Shown: positions 152-12,131 of the stretch, one piece after another
Position numbering within the stretch: the stretch's first letter is position 1
Layout of the letters: every line of letters begins with the position of its first letter
DNA from: Pseudomonadota bacterium
GTDB taxonomy: Bacteria > SZUA-182 > DTGQ01
Assembly: GCA_030625085.1 (NCBI GenBank)
Contig: DAOURK010000144.1
Location: 1 to 12,790, forward strand
DNA: 12,790 nucleotides
Reading direction: 5' to 3'
Notes under the pieces: generated by a model
What the model saw: only the letters and a program-made list of their open reading frames with translations
Told to the model about the DNA's origin: nothing
The model's database searches: none
Translations under genes and position numbers: made by a program

Positions 152-2119
152 CTAAAGCCCTGTGGGATTTTTATCCGTGCTTGTTAAAGAGACCAACTGA
201 GCCTCTTTCTTTTTCCGCGTCATTCGTGACAGCAATTTCTCTACCTCCATCTCTCCAAGGACCTCCTTTTCCATCAAGGCTTGAGCCAATCTATCCAAAA
301 CATGACGATTTCGCTTTATTATTTCCTCTGCTTGCTGCAAAGAAATCTGAAGTAAAGCCCTGACCTCCTGATCAATAATCACCGCCGTCCGTTCACTATA
401 ATCCTTCTCTTGGGCAATTTCTTTACCCAAAAATACATGCCCCTCTCCATGCTGAAAAGACACCGGCCCTAAGCGCTCGCTCATTCCCCAGTGGCAAATC
501 ATTCGTTTAGCCAATTGAGTGGCTTGCTTTAAATCATTTTCCGCACCCGAGGTCACATCCTCAAAGACCAATTTTTCTGCAGCTCTTCCTCCCAAACTGA
601 TAACCAACCGGTGCATCAGATAGGATTGAAAATAATTATACCTATCTTCTTTGGGAAGCTGTTCGGTTACTCCTAAGGAACGCCCCCGGGGGATAATGGT
701 AACCTTGTGAATAGGGTCAGAATCAGGGAAAAACCGGGCCACCAAAGTATGGCCTGCCTCATGAAAGGCCACAACCTTTTTTTCCCCTTCGCTTAATAAA
801 TCATCTCTCAATCCCCCCAGGAGAATTTTATCTTTGGCCCTCTCAAAATCTTCCATATCTACCTGATCCTTATTTTCTCTGGCTGCATCCAAGGCCGCTT
901 CATTAATGAGGTTTTCCAGGTCCGCCCCCGAAAACCCGGGTGTCCCCTGAGCCAATATGGTTAGATCCACGTCTGGGGCAAGCCGCACCTTTCGCGTATG
1001 GACCTTTAAAATTTGCAGTCTCCCTTCTTTATGCGGCCTTTCAATAACCACCTGACGATCAAACCTCCCCGGCCTGATCAAAGCAGGGTCTAAAACATCA
1101 GGACGGTTAGTAGCCGCAATAACCACCACTGATTGATGCTCGGCAAAACCATCCATCTCAGCCAAAATTTGATTCAATGTCTGTTCCCGTTCATCTTGTC
1201 CTCCTCCAATACCTGCCCCCCTATACCGCCCCACTGAATCGATTTCATCAATAAAAATAATGCTTGGAGCATTTCTCTTGGCTTTGCCGAACAAATCTCT
1301 TACCCGAGACGCACCCACACCAACAAACATTTCAATAAACTGCGAACCGGAAATAGAATAGAAAGGAACGCTTGCCTCGCCGGCCACAGCTCTGGCCATA
1401 AGAGTTTTCCCCGTACCCGGCGGGCCCATCAAAAGTACACCACGAGGAATTTTGCCGCCTAATCGCTCAAAGCGACCCGGTTCTTTCAAATAAGCAACAA
1501 TATCCATCAACTCCTTCTTAGCATAAGTTAAGCCGGCTACATCATCAAAAGTAATAATACTTTTTGTTTTTTGATACAAGTGGGCCCCGGACTTATTAAA
1601 CTTAGTAAACAATGTATTTTGGGTGCTGTTTAATTTCTTGGATGCATACCAAAAAAAGCCCAAAATAAAAACCCATGGCAAGACAAAAATCATCAGGCTA
1701 AAAAGCCATTCATTTCCTTTTTTGGCTGTTACAATTACCTCCGCTTCGGTTAATTCCCGCATCAAATCCTGATCGCCAAATTCCGGAATATGGGTAGTAA
1801 AATACAAATATTCAGCTTCTTTTCCCTCCTCTTTGCCCGAAGAGCTTGGCATAAAAACTGATTGAATAAATTCACCTTCAATTATTTCATTACGGGTTAT
1901 AATTTCTTTAATATTTCTGCCGGCCAACTCTTCCTTAAATTCGCTATAGGGAATTTCCATCCTCTCTTTTGGCTTACTTCCATAAAGAAAAAACTCATAG
2001 AAAATAAGGGCTAAAAGAAAAATTAAAAAAAGATGCTTCCAAATAGTATTTTTAGGAGAAGCCCCTCCTGATTCTTTATTTTCGGGGCTATCATCCCATT
2101 GATCATTCTCTGTTTTCAT
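152..2119 (-). CDS. ftsH: ATP-dependent zinc metalloprotease FtsH (membrane AAA+ protease)
   Basis: The 655-aa ORF has an N-terminal TM helix ([17 protein letters not shown]) and a second TM ([20 protein letters not shown]). It carries a Walker A motif (GPPGTGKT), Walker B ([11 protein letters not shown]), the AAA second region of homology ([19 protein letters not shown]) and the zinc-binding HEAGH motif of M41 peptidases. An AGAGGT Shine-Dalgarno sits about 7 nt upstream of the ATG at 2119 on the minus strand. Confidence 0.95.
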
Positions 2120-2301: not shown

Positions 2302-2337
2302 TTGACCAAAATCACAAATACAGTATGATGGTACAAT
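2302..2337 (+). promoter_or_regulatory. Candidate sigma70-type promoter for the rSAM cassette: TTGACC (2302-2307), 16-nt spacer, TATGAT (2324-2329). An overlapping extended -10 of form TGgTACAAT ends at 2337.
   Basis: I spotted this by eye as a -35/-10 match in the 250-bp divergent intergenic region between ftsH and the cassette. No transcript data are available. Confidence 0.25.
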
Positions 2338-2368: not shown

Positions 2369-3325
2369 ATGGATCATCCTTCACTACAAACCATCTCTAG
2401 TGCACCTCAATTGGAGAGAGAAAATTATCGCCTCTGCTTCCGCTTTGAATATGGCCCCCTGGATGACGGGACCATCTGGGTCAGGACCCCCCGCCGGGGG
2501 CTGTTTCATGTAGACTGGCTAACTTTACGACTTTTACTTGAAATGAATGCCGGAGCATCAACAAAAAATCTGGCCCAAAAGTACAAAATTGAGATTAAAG
2601 AGATTCACTCTCTTTTGCTCAATCTGGAAAAAGAAGGCGCCATTGTTCTTTCCAGACAAGGGAAAATAACCAGAGGTAAGCTGCAAGATGACATTCATCT
2701 GGCCCCCTTCATTTTTCTCTTTTTATTTTTAGGAATCATACAAGTTGAATATTTTCAAAATCTGGCCAGTACTGTCCACCTCAATCACTGGTATGAAGGG
2801 GTATTAATTGGTTTAATCTCTATCATACCTATCATTTTGCATGAATTGGGGCACTATATGACAGCCAAGCCTTATTTCCCGCCCAGGTTGGGATTTACCT
2901 ACTTATGGTTCTTTCCGGCGGTATACATTGACACTCAGGCAGCCTGGTGCCTTCCACGAAACATCCGGTTATTAATCAACTCAGCCGGGCTTTTCATGGA
3001 CCTTATTTTCAACACCGTAATGGCATATGTAGTCCTTTATTATCCACCCTGGGAGTATTTTGTTACTCCACTACTTATTCTTCAATATACTCGATGGACA
3101 ATCATTCTCAACCCTCTGGTTAACGGCGACGGCTATTGGCTCCTGTCCGATGCTTCTAAAACCATTAATCTGCGAAGAAAAGGGAGAGAAACCCTGCGTA
3201 AAGGTAAAATTCATTGGTTATCCCTCTATGGCCTTTTGTCTTTGTTCTTTTCTCTATTATCCATATTGGGCCTGGCCTGGTTTATCATAAATCTTCTGGG
3301 AAAGGTTATTCCCCCTTTCTTTTAA
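2369..3325 (+). CDS. PqqD-like (RiPP recognition element-like) N-terminal domain fused to an M50/site-2-protease-like intramembrane zinc metalloprotease
   Basis: Residues 20-95 (YRLCFRFEYGPLDDGTIWVRTPRRGLFHVDWLTLRLLLEMNAGASTKNLAQKYKIEIKEIHSLLLNLEKEGAIVL) follow the PqqD-family pattern of a beta-hairpin then a helical segment ending in a hydrophobic L..L...G motif. Six predicted TM helices follow. HELGH sits inside TM2 (nt 2840-2854) and NPLVNGDGYW inside TM5. Together these match the M50 HExxH plus NxxPxxxxDG signature of the RseP/SpoIVFB family. The ATG at 2369 has only a weak A-rich RBS. Confidence 0.6.
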   Translation: MDHPSLQTISSAPQLERENYRLCFRFEYGPLDDGTIWVRTPRRGLFHVDWLTLRLLLEMNAGASTKNLAQKYKIEIKEIHSLLLNLEKEGAIVLSRQGKITRGKLQDDIHLAPFIFLFLFLGIIQVEYFQNLASTVHLNHWYEGVLIGLISIIPIILHELGHYMTAKPYFPPRLGFTYLWFFPAVYIDTQAAWCLPRNIRLLINSAGLFMDLIFNTVMAYVVLYYPPWEYFVTPLLILQYTRWTIILNPLVNGDGYWLLSDASKTINLRRKGRETLRKGKIHWLSLYGLLSLFFSLLSILGLAWFIINLLGKVIPPFF

Positions 3326-3343
3326 ATAAGGAGGAGCATAAAA

Positions 3344-4108
3344 ATGCAGTTGGGATTGTTAAAGACGTTTCTTATTATTATAGCCGCCATTGCCCTTTTA
3401 GGGTCCACCTTTAAAATTATGAAAGAATACGAGAGGGCGGTTATCTTTCGATTAGGAAAATTATTACGAACCAAGGGACCGGGACTTATTTTTCTTATCC
3501 CTCTGGTTGACCGAATGAAAAAAATCGATCTAAGGCTCGTCTCAATAGATGTGCCAAGACAAGACATCATGACCAGGGACAATGTACCGGTAACCGTAGA
3601 TGCAGTAGTATATTTCCTCATTAGTGATCCGGCCCGGGCGGTCATTGGTATTCAAAACATCTATCAGTCTACTTTTCTGATCGCTCAGACCACTTTGCGT
3701 AATATTCTCGGCCAAGCGGAGCTTGATGATCTGCTAAGCCAGCAGTCAAAAATCAACCAGCAATTACAGCAGGTTGTCAGTGAGCATACCAGCCAGTGGG
3801 GAATCAAAATTCCTATTGTCGAAATCAAGGAAGTTACCCTGCCGGAAGAAATGAAAAGAGCCATGGCCAAGCAAGCCGAAACCGAGAGGGAGAGGAGGGC
3901 TCGAATCATAGATGCCCAGGGAGAATATCAGGCAGCCCAGACCCTTGCAGATGCTGGTAAAATTCTGTCCAGCAGCCCCCAAAGTTTACAATTGCGCTAC
4001 CTTCAGACGTTACGAGATATTTCTATGCAAAAAGGCTCTACTATTGTTTTCCCCTTCCCTCTAGATGTGGTTGAACCTTTTGTACAAGGAATAAAAAAAA
4101 TTTTCCAA
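3344..4108 (+). other. SPFH/stomatin (band 7) domain portion of the fusion CDS
   Basis: Stomatin/QmcA-like sequence including a coiled-coil region (EMKRAMAKQAETERERRARIIDAQGEYQAAQTLADAG). The C-terminal boundary is approximate. Confidence 0.7.
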
Positions 4109-5362
4109 AAAGAAGGGTCTGAAGCTAAGGGGAAAAAAGAGGAATCAGGTAAAAGTATGCCGAAGGAAAAAATTGCCGATAGCGAACCACAAGTAATAGA
4201 TAATGAGCCCCAAGTTACAAATTTTCAAAAAATTGATGTCCAACCCAATAAAAGCGAGACTCCACCCACTCCACCCCAACAAGAAATATTGACTCAATAT
4301 CAGAAATCCTGGCGGGAAGGGAAATTAAAACCTCAATACGTGCAGTGGTTGAGTACAGATAGATGCCAGTTCCAATGTGCTCACTGCGAAACAACGGCTC
4401 AGCAGGCCAATCCTAAAGAGTTAACTACTGATGAAGCAAAAAAAATCTTAGATGATCTGGCTGAACTTGGGTGTGAATTTTTATCTATCACCGGTGGTGA
4501 ACCCTTATTGCGCAAAGATGTTTTCTCTCTTGGCCAACATGCCCACCAAAGAGGACTGAAAGTGGGGCTGACCACCAACGCCCAGGCTGCGGAAAAAAAT
4601 CTTATGGCCTTGGAAAAGACGCGCTTTGACTCTTTGGTCATTACCCTGGATGGATATAAAGATACGCAAAACCACCTTCGTGGAACTGAAGATAGTTACG
4701 AGCGAGGTATTCGTACCATTGAATTTTTTCATGATCTGGGCGCACCCTCTATTGGCGTATCCACCATCCTGCTGGAAGAAAATCTTCAGGAACTTCCGCA
4801 GATGACTGAAGAAATTTTTCGTGCCGGCGCCCACAGTCTTCAGCTTCAACCATTACTCTTCCAGCACGGCCGGCCGGCTCGAAACTCATCGGAATTGGTT
4901 AAAAACGCCTTGAGGTTTGTTCCGGAAGCCAGGAGACGAGGTTTTGCCGTAGAAATTGGCGAGGTTTTCGGCTATCTGGGTCCTCTGGGACCCTTGGTCC
5001 GCAGCACTCCATTTTTCTGCGGCTGCGGCTGGAATACCTTTTGTATTAACCAAGAGGGAGATGTGGTGGGCTGTGCGCTGTCGAAGGCCTCTAATCTGAA
5101 GGAAGGAAATTGTCGGACCGATTCCCTTAAAGATATTTGGGAACAAAAATTTAGTACATTTCGTCAAAATGTACCCTCAGGGCTTCCCTCAACCTGTAGC
5201 CAATGTGAACATGTTTCCATCTGCCGGGGAGGATGCTGGCTTTTTAGGGCTCAAGGGTTAAACCCTTGTTTTCTGCCTGAGGCAGAACAAGTTTATCAGG
5301 AGATTAACAATGCGTTATATTCTCAAACTATTGAAGGAAAATCCCAAGTATTATCTCGATAA
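3344..5362 (+). CDS. Fusion protein: N-terminal SPFH/stomatin-like (band 7) domain, low-complexity K/E/P/Q linker, then a radical SAM enzyme with C-terminal SPASM (auxiliary 4Fe-4S) domain
   Basis: A strong RBS (AAGGAGGAG) lies 8 nt upstream of the ATG. Residues 1-255 form a complete stomatin-like protein: a TM helix, then YERAVIFRLGKLLRTKGPGLIFLIPLVDRMKKIDLRLVSIDVPRQDIMTRDNVPVTVDAVVYF, ending in LRYLQTLRDISMQKGSTIVFPFPLDV. The rSAM CxxxCxxC motif is CQFQCAHC (aa 341-348, nt 4364-4387), followed by a GGEPLLRKD glycine-rich SAM-binding segment. The C-terminus has SPASM-type cysteine clusters CGCGWNTFCINQEGDVVGC and CSQCEHVSICRGGCW. The reading frame is continuous with no internal stop. Confidence 0.8.
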   Translation: MQLGLLKTFLIIIAAIALLGSTFKIMKEYERAVIFRLGKLLRTKGPGLIFLIPLVDRMKKIDLRLVSIDVPRQDIMTRDNVPVTVDAVVYFLISDPARAVIGIQNIYQSTFLIAQTTLRNILGQAELDDLLSQQSKINQQLQQVVSEHTSQWGIKIPIVEIKEVTLPEEMKRAMAKQAETERERRARIIDAQGEYQAAQTLADAGKILSSSPQSLQLRYLQTLRDISMQKGSTIVFPFPLDVVEPFVQGIKKIFQKEGSEAKGKKEESGKSMPKEKIADSEPQVIDNEPQVTNFQKIDVQPNKSETPPTPPQQEILTQYQKSWREGKLKPQYVQWLSTDRCQFQCAHCETTAQQANPKELTTDEAKKILDDLAELGCEFLSITGGEPLLRKDVFSLGQHAHQRGLKVGLTTNAQAAEKNLMALEKTRFDSLVITLDGYKDTQNHLRGTEDSYERGIRTIEFFHDLGAPSIGVSTILLEENLQELPQMTEEIFRAGAHSLQLQPLLFQHGRPARNSSELVKNALRFVPEARRRGFAVEIGEVFGYLGPLGPLVRSTPFFCGCGWNTFCINQEGDVVGCALSKASNLKEGNCRTDSLKDIWEQKFSTFRQNVPSGLPSTCSQCEHVSICRGGCWLFRAQGLNPCFLPEAEQVYQEINNALYSQTIEGKSQVLSR

Positions 5363-6425
5363 AATTAAATATTACCCCCGCAATGTAGTCTGGGAGCTGA
5401 CTTTGCGCTGCAATATGAATTGTGCTCATTGCGGGTCCGAGGCTGGACCTGAACGAGGGCAAGAACTTAACCATGAAGAGGCCATGGATTTTTGTCGTCA
5501 ATTGGGAAAAATGGGTTGTGAACTCCTGACGCTCCTGGGAGGGGAACCTTTTTTGCGGGAAGATTGGGATGATCTGGCCCTCTGTCTTCAAGAATATGGG
5601 GTTAAGGTGAACGCTATTTCCAACGGGTATCTCATGGATCAAGCTTTGGTGGATAGGATTAAAAAGGCCCGCCTGAGCAATGTGGCCGTAAGTCTGGACG
5701 GACTTGAGCAAACTCACCAAAAAATGAGGCGGAAGCCGGGGTCGTTTCAACGAGTTCTGAATGCTTTAGATCTGCTTCGACAAAATGGTGTCTCCTCAGC
5801 TATGGTCACCACCATCTGCAAGGATAACCTGGATGAGTTAGATGGGATTCAACAGATCGCCATTGAAAAACAGGTGGATATCTGGCAGCTTCAAATCGGC
5901 GTTCCCCGTGGAAGGCTTTGTGAGCACTCCGATTTTGTCATCCAACCGGAAGACCTTTCCAAACTTGAACAATTTGTGCTCCGGGCACGCAAGGATCAAC
6001 GTATAAGGTTGGATGTCGCTGACAACATCGGCTATTTTGGCCAAAATGAGGAATCCTTGCGCACCAGCACACCCGGTCGGCTCCCTTTCTGGAGCGGATG
6101 TTTTGCGGGGATACAAGCCCTTGGCATCGAAGCCAATGGAGACATTAAGGGATGTTTATCAATGCCTACCCTGCCGGAATTCATTGAGGGTAATGTGCGC
6201 CAAGAACCTTTGGCCAAAATCTGGAACAAGCCTGGAGGCTTTTCCTACAACCGAGATTTTCATACCCGTATGTTGGAAGGTGATTGCAAGGATTGTGAAT
6301 ATGGTTATGTGTGCCGGGGAGGCTGTAAATCTACGGCCTATTGCTTTACCGGCTCGTTTTTTAATAATCCTTATTGCCTCTACCGCATAGAAAAAAAAGG
6401 AGAGGATAAAAAGTATAATAGTTAA
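5310..6425 (+). CDS. Radical SAM / SPASM-domain enzyme (peptide-maturase-like; anSME/sactipeptide-maturase-like architecture)
   Basis: An AGGAGA RBS lies 6 nt upstream of the ATG at 5310, and the start overlaps the upstream stop by 53 nt, suggesting translational coupling. The CxxxCxxC motif is CNMNCAHC (nt 5409-5432), followed by a GGEPFLRED SAM-binding motif. C-terminal SPASM cysteines are GCFAGIQALGIEANGDIKGC and CKDCEYGYVCRGGCKSTAYC. Confidence 0.85.
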   Translation: MRYILKLLKENPKYYLDKIKYYPRNVVWELTLRCNMNCAHCGSEAGPERGQELNHEEAMDFCRQLGKMGCELLTLLGGEPFLREDWDDLALCLQEYGVKVNAISNGYLMDQALVDRIKKARLSNVAVSLDGLEQTHQKMRRKPGSFQRVLNALDLLRQNGVSSAMVTTICKDNLDELDGIQQIAIEKQVDIWQLQIGVPRGRLCEHSDFVIQPEDLSKLEQFVLRARKDQRIRLDVADNIGYFGQNEESLRTSTPGRLPFWSGCFAGIQALGIEANGDIKGCLSMPTLPEFIEGNVRQEPLAKIWNKPGGFSYNRDFHTRMLEGDCKDCEYGYVCRGGCKSTAYCFTGSFFNNPYCLYRIEKKGEDKKYNS

Positions 6426-6454: not shown

Positions 6455-8095
6455 TTATATCTGAAGATACCAATCGGGATCGGGATCAGCAAAAATTTCT
6501 TCCCGATCCTCACATTCTTTCAAAAAATTCATATCATTATCGCCTATATTTGAATCCTGTTCCCATTTATAAGCCAGTTGAACAAGTTTTTTAAAATCCT
6601 CATGATGTTCGACTAACCTTCTGCTCCCATGATCTTTAGTGCTATTGGTGGAAATCATGAACTCCCAGTCAGAAGATTGAAGGATGAGTAATTCCCGGAT
6701 ACACTGGCGAAGAATTCTTTGAAGAAAAGCATCTTTCTGATCTCGAAAATGACTAGCCAAACGGCACATTTCTTCTTCAGCCGAATAAATCCTCTCCCAT
6801 ACCCATTCCAGCCCATTATTGATCCAGGTACTGCTGTCGGCATTTTTACCCCAAGATGATTCGGGTAACCGGACATATTCTGAAGAAGAATATTTTTCCC
6901 TGTAAGCAGAACAGGTAAGCAGACTTATTTCCGGATCACTATGAATCCATTTCAACAACTCATAAAGCCACGTGGGCCCTTCAAACCACCAATGGCCAAA
7001 TAATTCAGCATCAAAAGCAGCGACTTTCAAGCCTGCTTTATTGGTTTTGAAAAATTGACTCTTAAGGGTCCTTTTAATAGACCATTTGTAGTGACCTGCA
7101 TGTTGTATAATCAAATCTTTAACCGGTTCAGGAGAATAGACTTTTTTATACTCCATATCCAAGCGTTTATCAGTAATCCTCCAGTAACGATTACCGCTTC
7201 CCCAATGCTTTTTATGAAAGTCAAGATATTCGCCCTCTCCCGGATATCCGACATCAAAATTCCAGATCTGCGCAGAAAGTTTTGTGTCTCGAACAAACAA
7301 AGTGACAGGGGTTTGCTGTAAATGAGAATTATCGAGATAATAGGTGCTCCAAGGGATTTTCTCAACTTCGGCCGAGGAGCTTTTCTGAAATTGTTCTTGA
7401 TCAACAATGAAATAATACAAGCCGTTTTTGGCCAGCAATTCCTCAACCCCCGGTCGATAATAAGCCTGATGGTGTTTGCGATTCGTGAGAGGAAACGACC
7501 AATTACCAGAAGGACGGTAGCCGCATTCAGAGAGCCATATACCAGCAGGAGACCTCCCGAAAAGACGCTCATAGCTTAATCGGGCCATGCGAAGCTGGGC
7601 ATTGATACTGACATCTTTGGAAAGGGCCGGGAAATAAGAATGGGTAGCTGCACAGGTTATGATTTCAATGTGGCCTTCATCCTGTAAACGACGAAAGGCG
7701 TTAATAATATTTCCTTCATATTCATCCTGGAAAAGCCGTTTAGTTTTGTAGTAAAATTTTTTCCATAGCACAGCCAGCCTTTGCATCATGGGATCATTTG
7801 AGGTAAATTTTTTCTCTTCTTCCCAGGAAAAATATATCTTTTGATCACAATAATTTTGAAATTCTTCCCTAAAGTAATTCGTAACTAATTGCTCGGCCAG
7901 TACAGGTGAAATATTAATGGTGACTTTAGGTGAAATCCCCGTTCGAATCAACCGGTATAAGATATTAAGCAAAGGGATATAGGTTTCTGCAGCAGCTTCA
8001 TAAAGCCACTCTTCATTCATACGGTCGTGATGAAGAACATAGGGAATGTGAGAATGAAGAATTAAGATATAGGTACCTAAAAAATCATTGCTCAT
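6455..8095 (-). CDS. GH57-family 1,4-alpha-glucan branching enzyme
   Basis: The N-terminal LHSHIPYVLHHDRMNEEWLYEAAAETYIPLL is typical of GH57 branching enzymes. GIWLSECGY is the nucleophile region. FDAELFGHWWFEG matches the conserved GH57 branching-enzyme motif. Length is 546 aa. Confidence 0.85.
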   Translation of the reverse strand: MSNDFLGTYILILHSHIPYVLHHDRMNEEWLYEAAAETYIPLLNILYRLIRTGISPKVTINISPVLAEQLVTNYFREEFQNYCDQKIYFSWEEEKKFTSNDPMMQRLAVLWKKFYYKTKRLFQDEYEGNIINAFRRLQDEGHIEIITCAATHSYFPALSKDVSINAQLRMARLSYERLFGRSPAGIWLSECGYRPSGNWSFPLTNRKHHQAYYRPGVEELLAKNGLYYFIVDQEQFQKSSSAEVEKIPWSTYYLDNSHLQQTPVTLFVRDTKLSAQIWNFDVGYPGEGEYLDFHKKHWGSGNRYWRITDKRLDMEYKKVYSPEPVKDLIIQHAGHYKWSIKRTLKSQFFKTNKAGLKVAAFDAELFGHWWFEGPTWLYELLKWIHSDPEISLLTCSAYREKYSSSEYVRLPESSWGKNADSSTWINNGLEWVWERIYSAEEEMCRLASHFRDQKDAFLQRILRQCIRELLILQSSDWEFMISTNSTKDHGSRRLVEHHEDFKKLVQLAYKWEQDSNIGDNDMNFLKECEDREEIFADPDPDWYLQI

Positions 8096-8328
8096 GAGTC
8101 TCTTCTTATGTAATTTGATCTACTAACAGCCTTAATTTTTTTGCTTTGTGATTCCTAATGCGGCAGGTGTAAAAGTGAAAAATTATTGTATAGAAATAAT
8201 TCTATTGCGTCAACAAGTTTTTAAGAAATAAATATTTACAATATTTCGGACTTTTGATAGAATTTACCATTATTCTTTCAGATGAAAAAGCTGGGTTAAT
8301 CAATCAATAAAAAATCCAGAGGTAAAGC

Positions 8329-8913
8329 ATGCATAATTGGACAATAAAATATTTCCTCCCACTCTTTTTATCCTTATTTTTTTTCGTTACTCCTTCTTCG
8401 GCTTGGTTTTCTAGAGCAAAAATTATAGAATTTACCATTACGAATAATAATTATGTTTGTATCAACGCCAAAGTGAAAGGCGCCTTCACTGAAGGAATCA
8501 CTGAAGCCATTAATAGCGGGATCCCTACAACATTTAAATATTATATTGAATTAAGGAAACACCATTTGTTTTGGTTTGATAAAAAAGTTGTAAAAAAATT
8601 AATCCAACATCGAGTAAAGTATGACACCCTGAAAAAGGAATACCGGGTTACCATAGATAATGGAATTTCTCCTCAAGTGAAAATTTCCGGAAACGAAGAA
8701 GAGATGAAAAAATGGATGGCCAGTATAGATTCACTCCAATTTGTGCCTTCACAAAAGATACACCCTGGTAAAAAATACCAAATCAGGCTTAAGGCTGAAA
8801 TGAAATGTATTAAAATGCCTTTCCCTTTGAATTATTTGTTGTCTTATATTTCATTTTGGGATTTTGATACCCCATGGGTCAGCTTACGAATACCGCCTAA
8901 ATTCACTGATTAA
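8329..8913 (+). CDS. DUF4390-family secreted/periplasmic protein, the family often encoded immediately upstream of ntrY-like kinases
   Basis: Signal peptide (MHNWTIKYFLPLFLSLFFFVTPSSA). The core SGIPTTFKYYIELRKHHLFWFDKKVVKKLIQHRVKYDTLKKEYRV resembles my recollection of DUF4390. A strong RBS (AGAGGTAAAGC-ATG) is present and the gene sits directly upstream of an NtrY-type kinase. Confidence 0.65.
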   Translation: MHNWTIKYFLPLFLSLFFFVTPSSAWFSRAKIIEFTITNNNYVCINAKVKGAFTEGITEAINSGIPTTFKYYIELRKHHLFWFDKKVVKKLIQHRVKYDTLKKEYRVTIDNGISPQVKISGNEEEMKKWMASIDSLQFVPSQKIHPGKKYQIRLKAEMKCIKMPFPLNYLLSYISFWDFDTPWVSLRIPPKFTD

Positions 8914-9140: not shown

Positions 9141-11345
9141 ATGGAAAAAGCTGAAAAAATTGACGGCACGGGCCAAAAATGGAAGCTCATTATTGGCCTC
9201 ATTATTTTGATTGTTATTTTAACCGCCACTGAAACAATCATTTATCAATTGCGGACCCATGTTAATATTGCCGACAATGTTTTAATTCTGGTAGCTTTAA
9301 ATCTCAATATTATCCTCCTGGTAATCCTTGTTTTGCTGGTGTCACGGAATCTGGTAAAATTATATTTTGAGCGTAAACGTAATGTTTTAGGAGCAAAATT
9401 TCGTACCAAATTAATCATTTCGTTTGTCGGATTTTCTCTTATCCCATGTGTCTTACTTTTTCTGGTAGCCAGTGATTTAATTAACACCAGTGTTGACAGA
9501 TGGTTTACTGCACAAAATGAAGAACCCTTACGAAAAGCCTTAAAAGTGGCGCAAATCTATTATGATACTGAGTTAGGAAATGCTTTTAGTAAAACCCGTG
9601 AATTAAGCAAAGCTATTACTAAAAAAGCCTTACTCGACACAGGCAAGGAGGATGAATTAACATCTGCGATAAAAAAAATCCAGGAAAATTTTAACCTAGG
9701 CGTGGTTAAGATATTTAGTTCTACCAAAGAAGAAATTGCCCACCTTGAAAATGAAAGGATACCTCAAAGCCGTTTTATTAATCCAGTGTCAGACTTGGTG
9801 ACGAAAGCATTGGCAGGCCAGGAATTTTCCATTATTCGAAAAACCTATCAAGGTGATTTAATCGATGGAGTTGTTCCAATTATTTCCAAATGGAGGGAAA
9901 AAGATGTTGTCGGAGCATTAGTTTTTAACATTTTTGATCCCCACAGTCTCATGGAAGAGATCAATGATATTAAAAATTCATATGAAAAATACAAACAGCG
10001 AAAAATTTTTAAAGCTCCGGTCAAAAGTACTTATATTATAACCTTTTTGCTCATTACGTTATTAATTATCTTTTCAGCTACCTGGTTTGGTATCTATCTG
10101 GCCAAAAGCATAACCATTCCCATTCAAAAACTGGCTGAAGGAACACGCAAAGTAGCTTTAGGAAACTGGGATTATAAAGTTACGGCTCAAGCAAATGATG
10201 AAATAGGAATGCTCATCACCTCCTTCAATAAAATGACGAATGATCTGCATTCAGTCCATCAAAGTCTGCAAACAAGCAACCTGGAGTTAGATCAAAGAAG
10301 AGATTATATTGAGACAGTATTAGAAAACATAGCCTCAGGAGTTATTACCATTGGAAGAGATGGGAAGGTTACCACCATCAATAAGGCAGCCACGAAAATG
10401 CTGCGCCTCTCTAAAAAAGAACCGATAGGGGTTCATTATCAAACCCTTTTTGATACTCCAAATTTGCAGACACTCTATCTTTTACTTTATGATGTGGCAA
10501 AAAGGGAAAAAGCAGTTTATGAAAAAGAAATTCATCTCCCTATAGAAGGGATAGGGCTCAACCTGCTGGCCAGTGTATCAATCCTCCTTGACAAAGAAAA
10601 CCGATATATGGGAATGGTGTGTGCTTTTGATGATCTAACACAATTGATGAAAGCACAAAAAGTAGCTGCCTGGCAAGAAGTAGCACGCCGTCTGGCCCAT
10701 GAAATTAAAAATCCCTTAACGCCAATTCAGCTTTGCACACAACGTTTAAGGAAAAAATTCTATGAAGGGGCAGAGGGGTATAAGGATATTTTTGAAGAGT
10801 GTACAGAGACGATTATTCAGGAAGTAAATGATTTAAAAACAATGATTGATGAATTTTCTCAATTTGCCAGGATGCCTGTCCCCAATTTTAAGCTCGAAGA
10901 CATTAATGATCTGCTTAATACAGTTATTTCACGATATCAGCAAATGTATCCAAATATTCAGTTCAAACAAAAATTTTCACCAGATCTTCCGATGATCAAC
11001 CTTGACCGGGAGCAAATAAAAAGAGTCTTTATCAATTTGTTTGATAACGCAATTGATGCTATAATAGAGAGTAATCTGACTAAAAAAAATATAACTATAG
11101 TAAGTAGTTATGATCGAACTACGTCTAAGGTAGGCATACACATTTGTGATAATGGGAAAGGAATATCACCTGAAAATAAAGCCAAACTTTTCGTGCCTTA
11201 TTTTTCCAGCAAAAAAGAAGACCGGGGGCTTGGTTTAGCTATTGTTCATCGGATCATTAATGATCACAACGGTAGCATCAGTGTTGAAGACTATCAACCG
11301 AAAGGAACAAAATTTATTTTAATGTTTCCTGTTCAAACAGTCTGA
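9141..11345 (+). CDS. ntrY: NtrY-like sensor histidine kinase (multi-TM, HAMP, PAS, HisKA, HATPase_c)
   Basis: N-terminal TM helices, then a later TM followed by a HAMP segment (IPIQKLAEGTRKVALGNWDYKVTAQANDEIGMLITSFNKMTNDL). A PAS-like region (IETVLENIASGVITIGRDGKVTTINKAA) precedes the H-box (ARRLAHEIKNPLTPIQL). The kinase N, G1 and G2 boxes are present (NLFDNAIDA; ICDNGKGIS; GLGLAIVHRII). Confidence 0.9.
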   Translation: MEKAEKIDGTGQKWKLIIGLIILIVILTATETIIYQLRTHVNIADNVLILVALNLNIILLVILVLLVSRNLVKLYFERKRNVLGAKFRTKLIISFVGFSLIPCVLLFLVASDLINTSVDRWFTAQNEEPLRKALKVAQIYYDTELGNAFSKTRELSKAITKKALLDTGKEDELTSAIKKIQENFNLGVVKIFSSTKEEIAHLENERIPQSRFINPVSDLVTKALAGQEFSIIRKTYQGDLIDGVVPIISKWREKDVVGALVFNIFDPHSLMEEINDIKNSYEKYKQRKIFKAPVKSTYIITFLLITLLIIFSATWFGIYLAKSITIPIQKLAEGTRKVALGNWDYKVTAQANDEIGMLITSFNKMTNDLHSVHQSLQTSNLELDQRRDYIETVLENIASGVITIGRDGKVTTINKAATKMLRLSKKEPIGVHYQTLFDTPNLQTLYLLLYDVAKREKAVYEKEIHLPIEGIGLNLLASVSILLDKENRYMGMVCAFDDLTQLMKAQKVAAWQEVARRLAHEIKNPLTPIQLCTQRLRKKFYEGAEGYKDIFEECTETIIQEVNDLKTMIDEFSQFARMPVPNFKLEDINDLLNTVISRYQQMYPNIQFKQKFSPDLPMINLDREQIKRVFINLFDNAIDAIIESNLTKKNITIVSSYDRTTSKVGIHICDNGKGISPENKAKLFVPYFSSKKEDRGLGLAIVHRIINDHNGSISVEDYQPKGTKFILMFPVQTV

Positions 11346-11411: not shown

Positions 11412-12131
11412 ATGATGGTGTTAGGTATAGAAACTGCTACAATGGCAGGAAGCGTGTCTTTGGTGAATGAGCACGAGATTCTGGCTGAGTCCCTGGTGAA
11501 TAATGTAACCGGTCATGCTGAACGGCTATTGAAAGAGATAGATCAGATTCTTATTGATACAAATAAATCAACAGAAGAATGTGATGCTGTTGCAGTTTCC
11601 CTTGGCCCGGGATCATTCACTGGTCTTCGAATCGGCGTAAGTACAGCCAAGGCTTTTGCCTATGCCATTCAAAAACCCATCATAGGGATATCAACGTTGG
11701 AGACTTTATCTTGCAACCTTTCATGTGTTTCTCACCGCTTCATTTGTCCTATGATTGATGCTAAAAAAAAAGAAGTTTTTACCGCCCTATACAAATGGGT
11801 TGATGGAAAATTGGATATGATAATTCCCGAAAAAACCGTGCCTCCATTATATATGATTGATCAGTTAGATCATTCACAAGAAACCATTTTTTTAGGGAAT
11901 GGTTCACAATTATATGCGACAACAATTCAAACAAAATTTGGCCATAAGGGCATATTTGCTCCTTTTTATCATAATTTACCGAAAGCATCGATAGTGGCCG
12001 GCCTAGGATTAAGCCGCTTCATGGAGAAAAAATACGATGCAGTCGAAACATTAGTTCCAAAATATTTACGTCTTTCAGACGCGGAAATAAATTATACTAA
12101 AAACCACATTAAATGCCCTCCACATCACTAA
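11412..12131 (+). CDS. tsaB: tRNA threonylcarbamoyladenosine (t6A) biosynthesis protein TsaB (YeaZ family)
   Basis: N-terminal LGIETATMAGSVSLV and GPGSFTGLRIGVSTAKAFAYA match the TsaB/YeaZ ASKHA-fold signature. Length is 239 aa. An ATG at 11415 is an alternative start. The AGGAGGG upstream is about 16 nt away, which is rather far. Confidence 0.8.
   Translation: MMVLGIETATMAGSVSLVNEHEILAESLVNNVTGHAERLLKEIDQILIDTNKSTEECDAVAVSLGPGSFTGLRIGVSTAKAFAYAIQKPIIGISTLETLSCNLSCVSHRFICPMIDAKKKEVFTALYKWVDGKLDMIIPEKTVPPLYMIDQLDHSQETIFLGNGSQLYATTIQTKFGHKGIFAPFYHNLPKASIVAGLGLSRFMEKKYDAVETLVPKYLRLSDAEINYTKNHIKCPPHH

Follow-up and report, generated by a model that had tools for sequence, protein, structure and literature searches.

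SPFH proteins (stomatin, prohibitin, flotillin and HflK/C) are universal and their molecular function is debated, the clearest cases being cages around membrane proteases. Prokaryotic stomatin operons typically contain an NfeD partner gene. The radical S-adenosylmethionine (rSAM)/SPASM maturases of peptides that are made on ribosomes and modified after translation (RiPPs) include TvgB/TigE, triceptide GRR-type enzymes, SuiB, SkfB, CteB, PqqE and MftC; triceptide maturases crosslink an aromatic-X-X substrate motif, and MftC carries out Val-Tyr chemistry. Here we describe a gene that joins these two kinds of protein on one chain, located at positions 3344..5362 (+) of a 12,790-nucleotide stretch from a Pseudomonadota bacterium (GenBank assembly GCA_030625085.1, contig DAOURK010000144.1), hereafter called the window. 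Our preferred reading, which we hold at a probability of roughly 60%, is that the 672-residue product is a membrane-anchored stomatin with a tethered peptide- or protein-modifying rSAM/SPASM enzyme and that it is central to a RiPP-like maturation cassette. The observation of the stomatin-rSAM fusion itself we regard as practically certain.

The fusion gene starts with ATG behind a strong Shine-Dalgarno site (AAGGAGG, 3328..3334, +). Its product opens with a single hydrophobic segment (residues 3-21; 3350..3406, +), which aligns with the stomatin membrane segment and is followed by positive charges. The stomatin body (3416..4084, +) comprises the SPFH core (residues 25-194), a coiled-coil helix and an LQLRYLQTL...STIVFPFP segment, ending at residue 247. 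Pfam Band_7 matched residues 25-194 with E=1.1e-36 (127 bits, cutoff 23.6), which gives the proposed N-terminal domain the profile support it needed. Among PDB sequences, residues 11-247 are collinear with human stomatin 63-300 (E=6.9e-69), the alignment extending over the C-terminal LQLRYLQTL...STIVFP.P segment, and solved stomatins share 42-55% identity with this half. The next match was E. coli QmcA (2e-36), whose entry holds 26 chains, while the matched human stomatin entries hold 16 chains of that sequence. Since the match to stomatin is collinear and includes the C-terminal segment, and since HflK/C (1e-10 to 1e-13), prohibitin (1e-8) and flotillin (1e-6) are far weaker matches, the N-terminal module is, judged by its sequence, a genuine and complete stomatin. 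This agrees with the sequence-only reading of the locus, which had assigned it an anchor, an SPFH core, a coiled coil and the characteristic C-terminal segment.

Downstream of the stomatin body lies a low-complexity linker rich in K, E, Q, P and S (residues ~250-329; 4091..4330, +; family alignment columns ~255-470), followed by the Radical SAM core (residues 337-489; 4352..4810, +; Pfam E=1.2e-21, 78 bits against a cutoff of 29.5) and the SPASM domain (residues 559-642; 5018..5269, +; Pfam match over 559-622, E=8.6e-9, 36 bits against a cutoff of 21.5). The core carries CQFQCAHC at nucleotides 4364-4387, and its C341-x3-C345-x2-C348 is invariant in the 19 aligned family members. The same is true of the eight SPASM cysteines C559, C567, C577, C618, C621, C627, C631 and C642, which fit the pattern C..G....C / CxxCx5Cx3C / C of two auxiliary Fe-S clusters. 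The fusion thus has the same CxxxCxxC and twin-cluster SPASM as the RiPP maturases, and the full rSAM core and twin-cluster tail that had been read from the translation are both present. An AlphaFold2 (AF2) monomer built on the family alignment contains two folded modules, with a predicted local distance difference test (pLDDT) score of 60-75 in the SPFH module and 85-93 in the rSAM core, and with values below 50 over residues 204-309 between them. In Foldseek searches, the first module matched human and Pyrococcus stomatin (E down to 6e-18, 9z7u/9oh9), and the second matched the peptide maturases SkfB, SuiB, PqqE, CteB and anSME. The linker is disordered in the model and variable across the family, and its composition agrees with the K/E/S/P/Q-rich connection described earlier.

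We noticed that the fusion departs from each parent class. Its residues 11-247 are homologous over their full length to stomatin/QmcA-type proteins (human stomatin, P. horikoshii PH1511, E. coli QmcA-YbbJ), and it shares with other SPFH proteins a genetic link to a membrane protease; unlike them, it adds a C-terminal extension of ~420 residues (linker plus rSAM/SPASM). Instead of NfeD, its partner is an intramembrane metalloprotease with an HExxH motif that bears a RiPP recognition element (RRE). No NfeD (PF01957) was found among the window neighbors or the called genes of related loci, so the classical stomatin operon partner invoked in the sequence-only reading does not apply here. In contrast to the RiPP rSAM maturases, neither rSAM protein of the cassette has an RRE, which sits on the protease instead, and one of the two enzymes is fused to a stomatin. 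Neither rSAM has an N-terminal extension roomy enough for an RRE, their cores starting within ~20-30 residues of the linker or the N-terminus.

The fusion architecture recurs well beyond the window. A search of 5.8 billion proteins returned ~20 full-length homologues (P0001-P0020; 58-70% identity, 619-884 residues) from independent assemblies (NCBI metagenome-assembled genomes (MAGs), JGI, ENA and Logan), every one with Band_7 and Radical_SAM on one chain and most with SPASM as well. Conservation is dense in both halves across the 19 aligned sequences, and in the stomatin half dozens of positions are invariant as far as residue 246; the linker, always in frame, measures anywhere from ~20 to >200 residues. 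The longest homologue, P0007 (884 residues), has a linker of ~230 residues of Q/P/S/A-rich repeats; P0002, P0005 and P0007 have a 10-45-residue insertion inside the rSAM core after an RLRGV motif (alignment columns ~606-650). The same in-frame fusion occurs in 11 distinct genomic cassettes. Among the best 150 matches listed (down to ~213 bits) in a phmmer search of 1.84 billion 50%-identity representatives, a single representative, P0017, is fused. The only other two-stretch candidate among the matches listed, P0227, was rejected as a second fusion clade; it is a tandem Band_7 protein. Given the independent assemblies, the conserved halves, the in-frame linkers and the single fused representative, we conclude that the fusion architecture is genuine and under selection and that, among the matches listed, it is restricted to one narrow clade.

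An assembly or annotation artefact, in which a sequencing error in the linker had merged separate stomatin and rSAM genes, might be suspected from the low complexity of the linker and from P0015, a 98% identical protein annotated as a 401-residue rSAM enzyme only. Yet 104 nt separate the start of P0015 from an end of its 5.1-kb contig, whose synteny is otherwise as in the window, and the P0015 frame continues open upstream; we therefore rejected it as an unfused version and attribute its length to truncation at the contig end. The frame is uninterrupted in ~20 independent assemblies and 11 cassettes with differing linker lengths, and no internal Shine-Dalgarno site or start is conserved. The chance of such an artefact is practically negligible, which settles the concern about a frameshift or merged reading frame that had been raised with the first reading. 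Public annotations name the homologues only 'SPFH domain-containing protein' or 'radical SAM protein'. Full-text literature searches found no paper on a fusion of SPFH/stomatin to, or its association with, radical SAM, SPASM or RiPP, and no SPFH protein to which an enzyme of such a kind is covalently joined. Together with the one fused cluster among the matches listed, this is in keeping with the earlier impression that the architecture had not been described.

We then compared the fused cassettes of the window (with L008), L001, L003, L004, L005, L006, L007, L014, L016, L017 and L019, and later L033. The core of the cassette is constant, and its flanks differ (an HhH-GPD glycosylase, an HD-domain protein, an ATP synthase operon, or, in the window only, FtsH). 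In 11/11 cassettes an HExxH protease gene of ~306-334 codons lies immediately upstream of the fusion; a second rSAM/SPASM gene (rSAM-2) lies downstream in 9/11, and in 9/11 one to three genes for leader-bearing proteins of ~180-250 residues follow rSAM-2. That the fusion, the protease and rSAM-2 belong together in a conserved maturation cassette is very likely. The adjacent M50 protease of the sequence-only reading therefore holds up, as an intramembrane HExxH (S2P/M50-like) metalloprotease. One MAG (MAG299; L013 and L014; contigs JBFMGO010000015.1, ...18.1) contains two paralogous fused cassettes, with P0002 and P0006, and the protease reading frame of L014 has just 207 codons, which may reflect a frameshift or truncation.

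In the window, the protease (318 residues; 2369..3325, +) has four hydrophobic segments. Its zinc-binding motif HELGH (residues 158-162; 2840..2854, +) lies at the end of the second of these, with H158, E159 and H162 invariant, and NPLVNGDG (residues 248-255; 3110..3133, +), with N248, P249, G253, D254 and G255 invariant, is presumably the counterpart of the NxxPxxxxDG motif that supplies the third zinc ligand in the S2P family. Peptidase_M50 (PF02163) scored 19 bits, under its cutoff of 27.2, and no Pfam match exceeded its threshold; the best NCBIfam matches were daptide_HExxH (E=1.8e-14, 53.7 bits against a cutoff of 300) and YydH/LiaK (E=1.1e-13, 51.4 bits against a cutoff of 225). Going by these profile scores, the protease is a family related to, and distinct from, M50 and the NCBIfam RiPP HExxH proteases. 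The family is small, with ~36 members, all annotated 'hypothetical'. The first ~105 residues (2369..2683, +) look PqqD-like by eye. An AF2 model of the protease from 30 family members gave pLDDT ~90 over residues 20-105 with the topology b1-b2-b3-a1-a2-a3, a three-stranded sheet followed by three helices as in the winged helix of an RRE, presumably on the cytoplasmic side. From this predicted structure we conclude that the partner of the fusion is an RRE-fused intramembrane metalloprotease.

Among RiPP pathways, M50 proteases have precedents such as EpeP and TglG/TmoG, and EpeP is presumed both to cut its peptide and to export it (PMC10885120). Like the RiPP M50/HExxH proteases (EpeP/YydH, daptide HExxH, TglG/TmoG), the cassette protease places HExxH in a hydrophobic segment and has an NPxxxxDG-type motif. 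It differs from them in falling far under the equivalog cutoffs, in bearing an N-terminal RRE, and in being coupled to a stomatin, whether rSAM-fused or free. Lasso-peptide B1/B2 proteins also combine an RRE with a leader protease; here, however, the protease is an integral-membrane zinc enzyme instead of a cytoplasmic cysteine protease, and there is no lasso cyclase.

The second maturase, rSAM-2 (371 residues; 5310..6425, +), shares 30% identity with the fusion's rSAM half. The gene has its own AGGAG, and its first 53 nt lie within the 3' end of the fusion gene; L001 and L003-L006 likewise have an overlap of 32-53 nt. Given the Shine-Dalgarno sites and this conserved overlap, we infer that rSAM-2 is translationally coupled to the fusion. 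The 53 nt at 5310-5362 are dual-coding, for the fusion tail ALYSQTIEGKSQVLSR and for the rSAM-2 start MRYILKLLKENPKYYL..., and both frames are conserved across loci. A rSAM protein of ~301 residues with a weak DUF3463 match recurs downstream in L004 (10725-11630), L007 (10029-10937) and L019 (6690-7595); in L007 it takes the position of rSAM-2, right behind the fusion.

The window raises a further question because a complete FtsH gene (152..2119, -; TIGR01241, 775 bits) is the divergent neighbor of the cassette, and HflK/C is known to cage FtsH, another pairing of an SPFH assembly with a membrane zinc protease. On an HflK/C-like explanation, the stomatin module would modulate this FtsH and the rSAM would be an accessory; the HflK/C-FtsH structures 7vhp/7wi3 are indeed among the PDB matches. 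The other fused loci, however, are flanked by HhH-GPD, HD-domain or ATP synthase genes and never by FtsH, so the neighborhood is peculiar to the window lineage, and the module is of the stomatin type (E=7e-69), to which HflK/C is only distantly related. We consider this explanation very improbable, and the link to HflK/C and FtsH suggested by the sequence-only reading is not sustained by the fused cassettes.

Additionally, we found cassettes in which the stomatin is a separate gene, next to distant relatives of the protease (42-52% identity). In L029 the order is Band_7 (257 residues), a leader-like repeat protein, a rSAM/SPASM-ATP-grasp fusion and the HExxH-RRE protease; the leader-like protein (RLFIEDLEKRKSTSPLF...) reads MGKKVKRLFIEDLEKRKSTSPLF... 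and then KPIPILAPTPIVAKPVVG repeats. In L031 the order is rSAM/SPASM (42% identical to rSAM-2), a repeat lipoprotein, ATP-grasp, the HExxH-RRE protease and Band_7 (248 residues). The two parts of the fusion thus occur in relatives as adjacent, separate genes of one cassette, an arrangement that the first reading had proposed to look for. The free stomatins of L029 and L031, in cassettes whose protease is 47-52% identical, are 62-64% identical to the fused half, against <=58% for generic stomatins. Because these distant cassettes keep a separate and unusually close stomatin gene, the association of stomatin, protease and rSAM, as traced by sequence comparison, predates the fusion and is independent of it, as expected if the three proteins work together physically. 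The ATP-grasp, fused in L029 and a separate gene in L031, suggests an extra ligation step in those systems. In L029, positions 3197-5281 encode the 694-residue rSAM/SPASM-ATP-grasp (RimK-like) fusion beside the protein with proline-rich KPIPILAPTPIVAKPVVG repeats; in L031, positions 4280-5191 encode a 303-residue lipoprotein-like, propeller-like protein with ~8 repeats of D[KR]YLG.PH[KQ]W..IA between the rSAM and the ATP-grasp.

These relatives bear on a simpler explanation, namely that the stomatin half is a mere membrane anchor or targeting device for the rSAM, with no cage and no scaffolding of the protease. Both the length and the sequence of the linker vary strongly, as they would in a simple tether, and one N-terminal hydrophobic segment would suffice to hold the enzyme at the membrane. 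Anchoring would not, however, need the rest of the stomatin body, which is conserved as a whole, including the coiled coil and the LQLRYLQTL...FP.P segment, and which aligns over its full length with a cage-forming stomatin. Moreover, L029 and L031 keep an orthologous stomatin as a separate gene that anchors nothing covalently. We therefore regard a pure anchor as unlikely; a scaffold or assembly-line role of the stomatin we hold to be about evenly poised.

The proteins encoded after rSAM-2 have features of candidate substrates. They share a near-invariant N-terminus, M[A/P]HIFFE[K/R/P]LE[N/K/Q]R[R/Q/K][S/N]TQ[S/T]L, whose conserved 18-residue leader is MAHIFFEKLENRRSTQSL, followed by a hypervariable body rich in Tyr, Trp, Gly, Ser and Pro and enriched in [L/Y]-Y-G-[V/I]. 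Their apparent anatomy is that of a leader plus core, and no NCBIfam family matched them; examples are encoded at L003 10948-11586 and L006 11770-12456. In 8/12 candidates, each protein has 3-6 copies of Y-G-[V/I] where its composition predicts 0.1-0.3 (P<0.003), and the residue before the motif is usually Leu, Tyr or Met. A conserved leader with a short motif repeated in the core is also found in repeat-motif precursors: PMC10878394 describes a repeating TIGSVS in the TigB precursor, and PMC9062424 a poly-cyclopropylglycine precursor. The first reading missed the likely substrates, which are not encoded in the window, and likewise missed the RRE of the protease.

The leader is tied to the enzymes from two directions. 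A degenerate DNA scan of JGI metagenomes with the leader alone returned 8 contigs with 11 leader proteins, and wherever the contig had flanking sequence, a rSAM gene of the system was adjacent. In L032 this was rSAM-2 and in L036 and L037 an unfused rSAM1-like gene, and L033 had the whole four-gene cassette. From the other direction, unfused relatives of the rSAM half adjoin proteins with x-Y-G-V repeats. The closest of these relatives have ~360 residues and are 42-45% identical, one being from Candidatus Omnitrophica. In L011 and L012 the unfused rSAM lies directly downstream of a protein that has a signal peptide and P[L/V/M]YGVE...P repeats in tandem; L009 has repeat fragments of the same kind, and L020 (a Candidatus Omnitrophota MAG) has a Y-A-V variant. 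These signal-peptide proteins, with P[LVM]Y[GA]VE..P..P repeats, are encoded at L011 6990-7922, L009 3-284 and L020 2-223, directly upstream of the unfused rSAM/SPASM. The x-Y-G-V motif is the sole feature common to the repeat proteins and the leader proteins of the fused clade, and it is therefore the best candidate target of the rSAM1 lineage. Taken together, the leader proteins are probably the substrates. After the repeat protein, L011 encodes two large proteins (547 and 314 residues) that are Asn/Thr/Ser-rich and look secreted. In L017 (799-7050), L036 and L037, a leader protein is followed by an unfused rSAM1-like paralogue (39-45% identity) and then a third, distant rSAM, and in L017 the HExxH protease and the fusion come after this array. 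The L017 and L036 leader proteins have no Y-G-[V/I] and share a C-terminal tail, DRLSKL.K.R.NLIA.F.NKGILSDKQGQRLL.

We also considered whether the rSAMs might mature a cofactor (heme d1/AhbD-, PQQ- or mycofactocin-like) or modify a non-protein substrate, with the leader proteins as unrelated neighbors. The enzymes do match NirJ, AhbD/AhbC, PqqE and MftC in NCBIfam at E=1e-26 to 1e-37, yet with scores 2-6 fold under the equivalog cutoffs, and neither the window nor the related loci contain genes of a heme, PQQ or mycofactocin pathway. The co-occurrence of leader proteins with rSAM genes of the system in the leader-first search and the RRE-protease as invariable partner also speak against it, and we judge a cofactor role quite improbable. 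A viperin-type anti-phage defence system likewise finds a starting point in profile matches, since the PADLOC pVip models match both rSAM proteins at E=1e-16 to 1e-19. These matches, however, are limited to the generic rSAM core and score equally for both enzymes, the NCBIfam viperin model gives 55 bits against a cutoff of 180, and the protease has no PADLOC match. Moreover, we know of no viperin with a SPASM domain, and we give a defence role scarcely any weight.

As for the chemistry, the named rSAM equivalogs tested were MftC, PqqE, NirJ/AhbD, nif11-class maturase 3, GDL-motif maturase, StsB, AlbA and SkfB, and no score reached its curated cutoff. The best NCBIfam matches of the rSAM half are RiPP or cofactor-peptide maturases, and its best scores are 141 against a cutoff of 425 (TIGR04133) and 126 against 265 (MftC); rSAM-2 scores 271 against 725 for nif11-class maturase 3 and 242 against 592 for the GDL-motif maturase. 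PMC10878394 describes a GYW motif unique to all cyclopropyl synthases, with the Tyr as a ligand to auxiliary cluster I. A G[YF]W motif is absent from both rSAMs, and with this hallmark missing we consider a cyclopropyl synthase or cyclopropylglycine chemistry unlikely. The Tyr-x-Val/Ile spacing of the candidate substrates formally fits the three-residue aromatic-X-X crosslink motif of triceptides; the 25 best NCBIfam matches include no model for a triceptide maturase. Our best guess, offered with low confidence, is a Tyr-centered crosslink within Y-G-[V/I], for which the formation of three-residue cyclophanes and the Val-Tyr chemistry of MftC serve as analogies.

Several observations weigh against the RiPP-like maturation that we prefer. 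Just 0-1 copies of Y-G-[V/I] are present in four of the 12 candidates (two of which are short or truncated) and in several further leader proteins from the metagenome scan, so the motif cannot be the sole target. The cores, at ~200 residues, are large for a RiPP and set the candidates apart from the substrates of the known rSAM maturases. Six-frame searches for the leader and for Y-G-[V/I] found no substrate gene in the window, and none is present in the 98%-identical L008; in the window lineage it must lie elsewhere or have been lost. L007/L018 lacks both rSAM-2 and a leader protein, and a transporter is not among the conserved cassette genes. The NCBIfam cutoffs are missed so widely that no chemistry can be transferred from the named families. 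The SPFH region of the AF2 monomer is only moderately confident; the check that had been proposed with AlphaFold returned two folded modules with a low-confidence stretch between them. Finally, PqqD (PF05402) was not detected on the protease, where Pfam (E<=10) and PDB profile searches gave sub-threshold winged-helix matches only, and the Foldseek E-values for the RRE similarity are not significant, so that the RRE assignment is one of predicted structure.

With the tethered-enzyme reading weighed in this way, we propose how the RiPP-like cassette could work. The RRE of the intramembrane protease would capture the leader of the substrate (MAHIFFEKLENRRSTQSL; proteins of ~180-250 residues) at the cytoplasmic face of the membrane. 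The stomatin module would oligomerize into a ring or cage, as solved stomatins do, and the oligomer would put many tethered rSAM domains beside the protease. Since the C-termini of SPFH cages converge at the cap, the flexible linkers could display a crown of rSAM domains there. The stomatin half would face the cytoplasm, as positive charges follow its single anchor and rSAM chemistry needs cytoplasmic S-adenosylmethionine and reductant. The tethered rSAM and the translationally coupled rSAM-2 would then modify the core repeatedly and at many sites, the tethered enzyme most likely acting on [L/Y/M]-Y-G-[V/I], for instance through a Tyr-centered C-C or C-O crosslink. Finally, the protease would remove the leader and possibly aid release or export. 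We infer the oligomerization, the cytoplasmic orientation, the pairing of enzymes with residues, the chemistry and the order of events, and by the same inference the fusion may act in a membrane microdomain, as the sequence-only reading had suggested. More tentatively still, and as a possibility that we hold to be less likely than not, the stomatin cage could be the chassis of an assembly line, in which at least 16 tethered rSAM domains around the RRE-guided protease would processively crosslink Tyr/Trp-rich proteins of ~200 residues into a new class of heavily modified polypeptide, possibly secreted or envelope material.

The remaining features of the window are as follows. A promoter-like TTGACC-16-TATGAT (2302..2329, +) lies between the divergent FtsH and protease genes, a weak site with a consensus match of 10/12. 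Directly after rSAM-2, in convergent orientation, is a GH57 1,4-alpha-glucan branching enzyme (6455..8095, -), followed by a DUF4390 protein (8329..8913, +) and, read from translation only, a large membrane sensor histidine kinase (9141..11345, +) and a TsaB/YeaZ-like protein (11412..12131, +); all four appear unrelated to the cassette. Small reading frames in the intergenic regions 2119-2369 and 8095-8329 look spurious, and no Rfam family or tRNA was found in the window.

All modules of the system are of known kinds (stomatin, rSAM/SPASM maturase, RRE, M50-like protease and leader-core substrate), and it is their architecture that is unprecedented. A stomatin joined to an enzyme beside a protease, with separate neighboring genes for the same parts in relatives, represents unusually direct genetic evidence for a scaffold-organized pathway. 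To RiPP research the locus brings a new precursor family, with the MAHIFFEKLENRRSTQSL leader and Tyr/Trp-rich cores of ~200 residues. It further brings two uncharacterized rSAM/SPASM clades, for which Y-G-[V/I] is a candidate target motif, as well as an intramembrane protease fused to an RRE and the notion of a maturation process organized in space at the membrane. If the stomatin cage does serve as a chassis, the fusion would be the first SPFH scaffold with covalently attached catalytic cargo, and it would provide a concrete biochemical function for prokaryotic stomatins.

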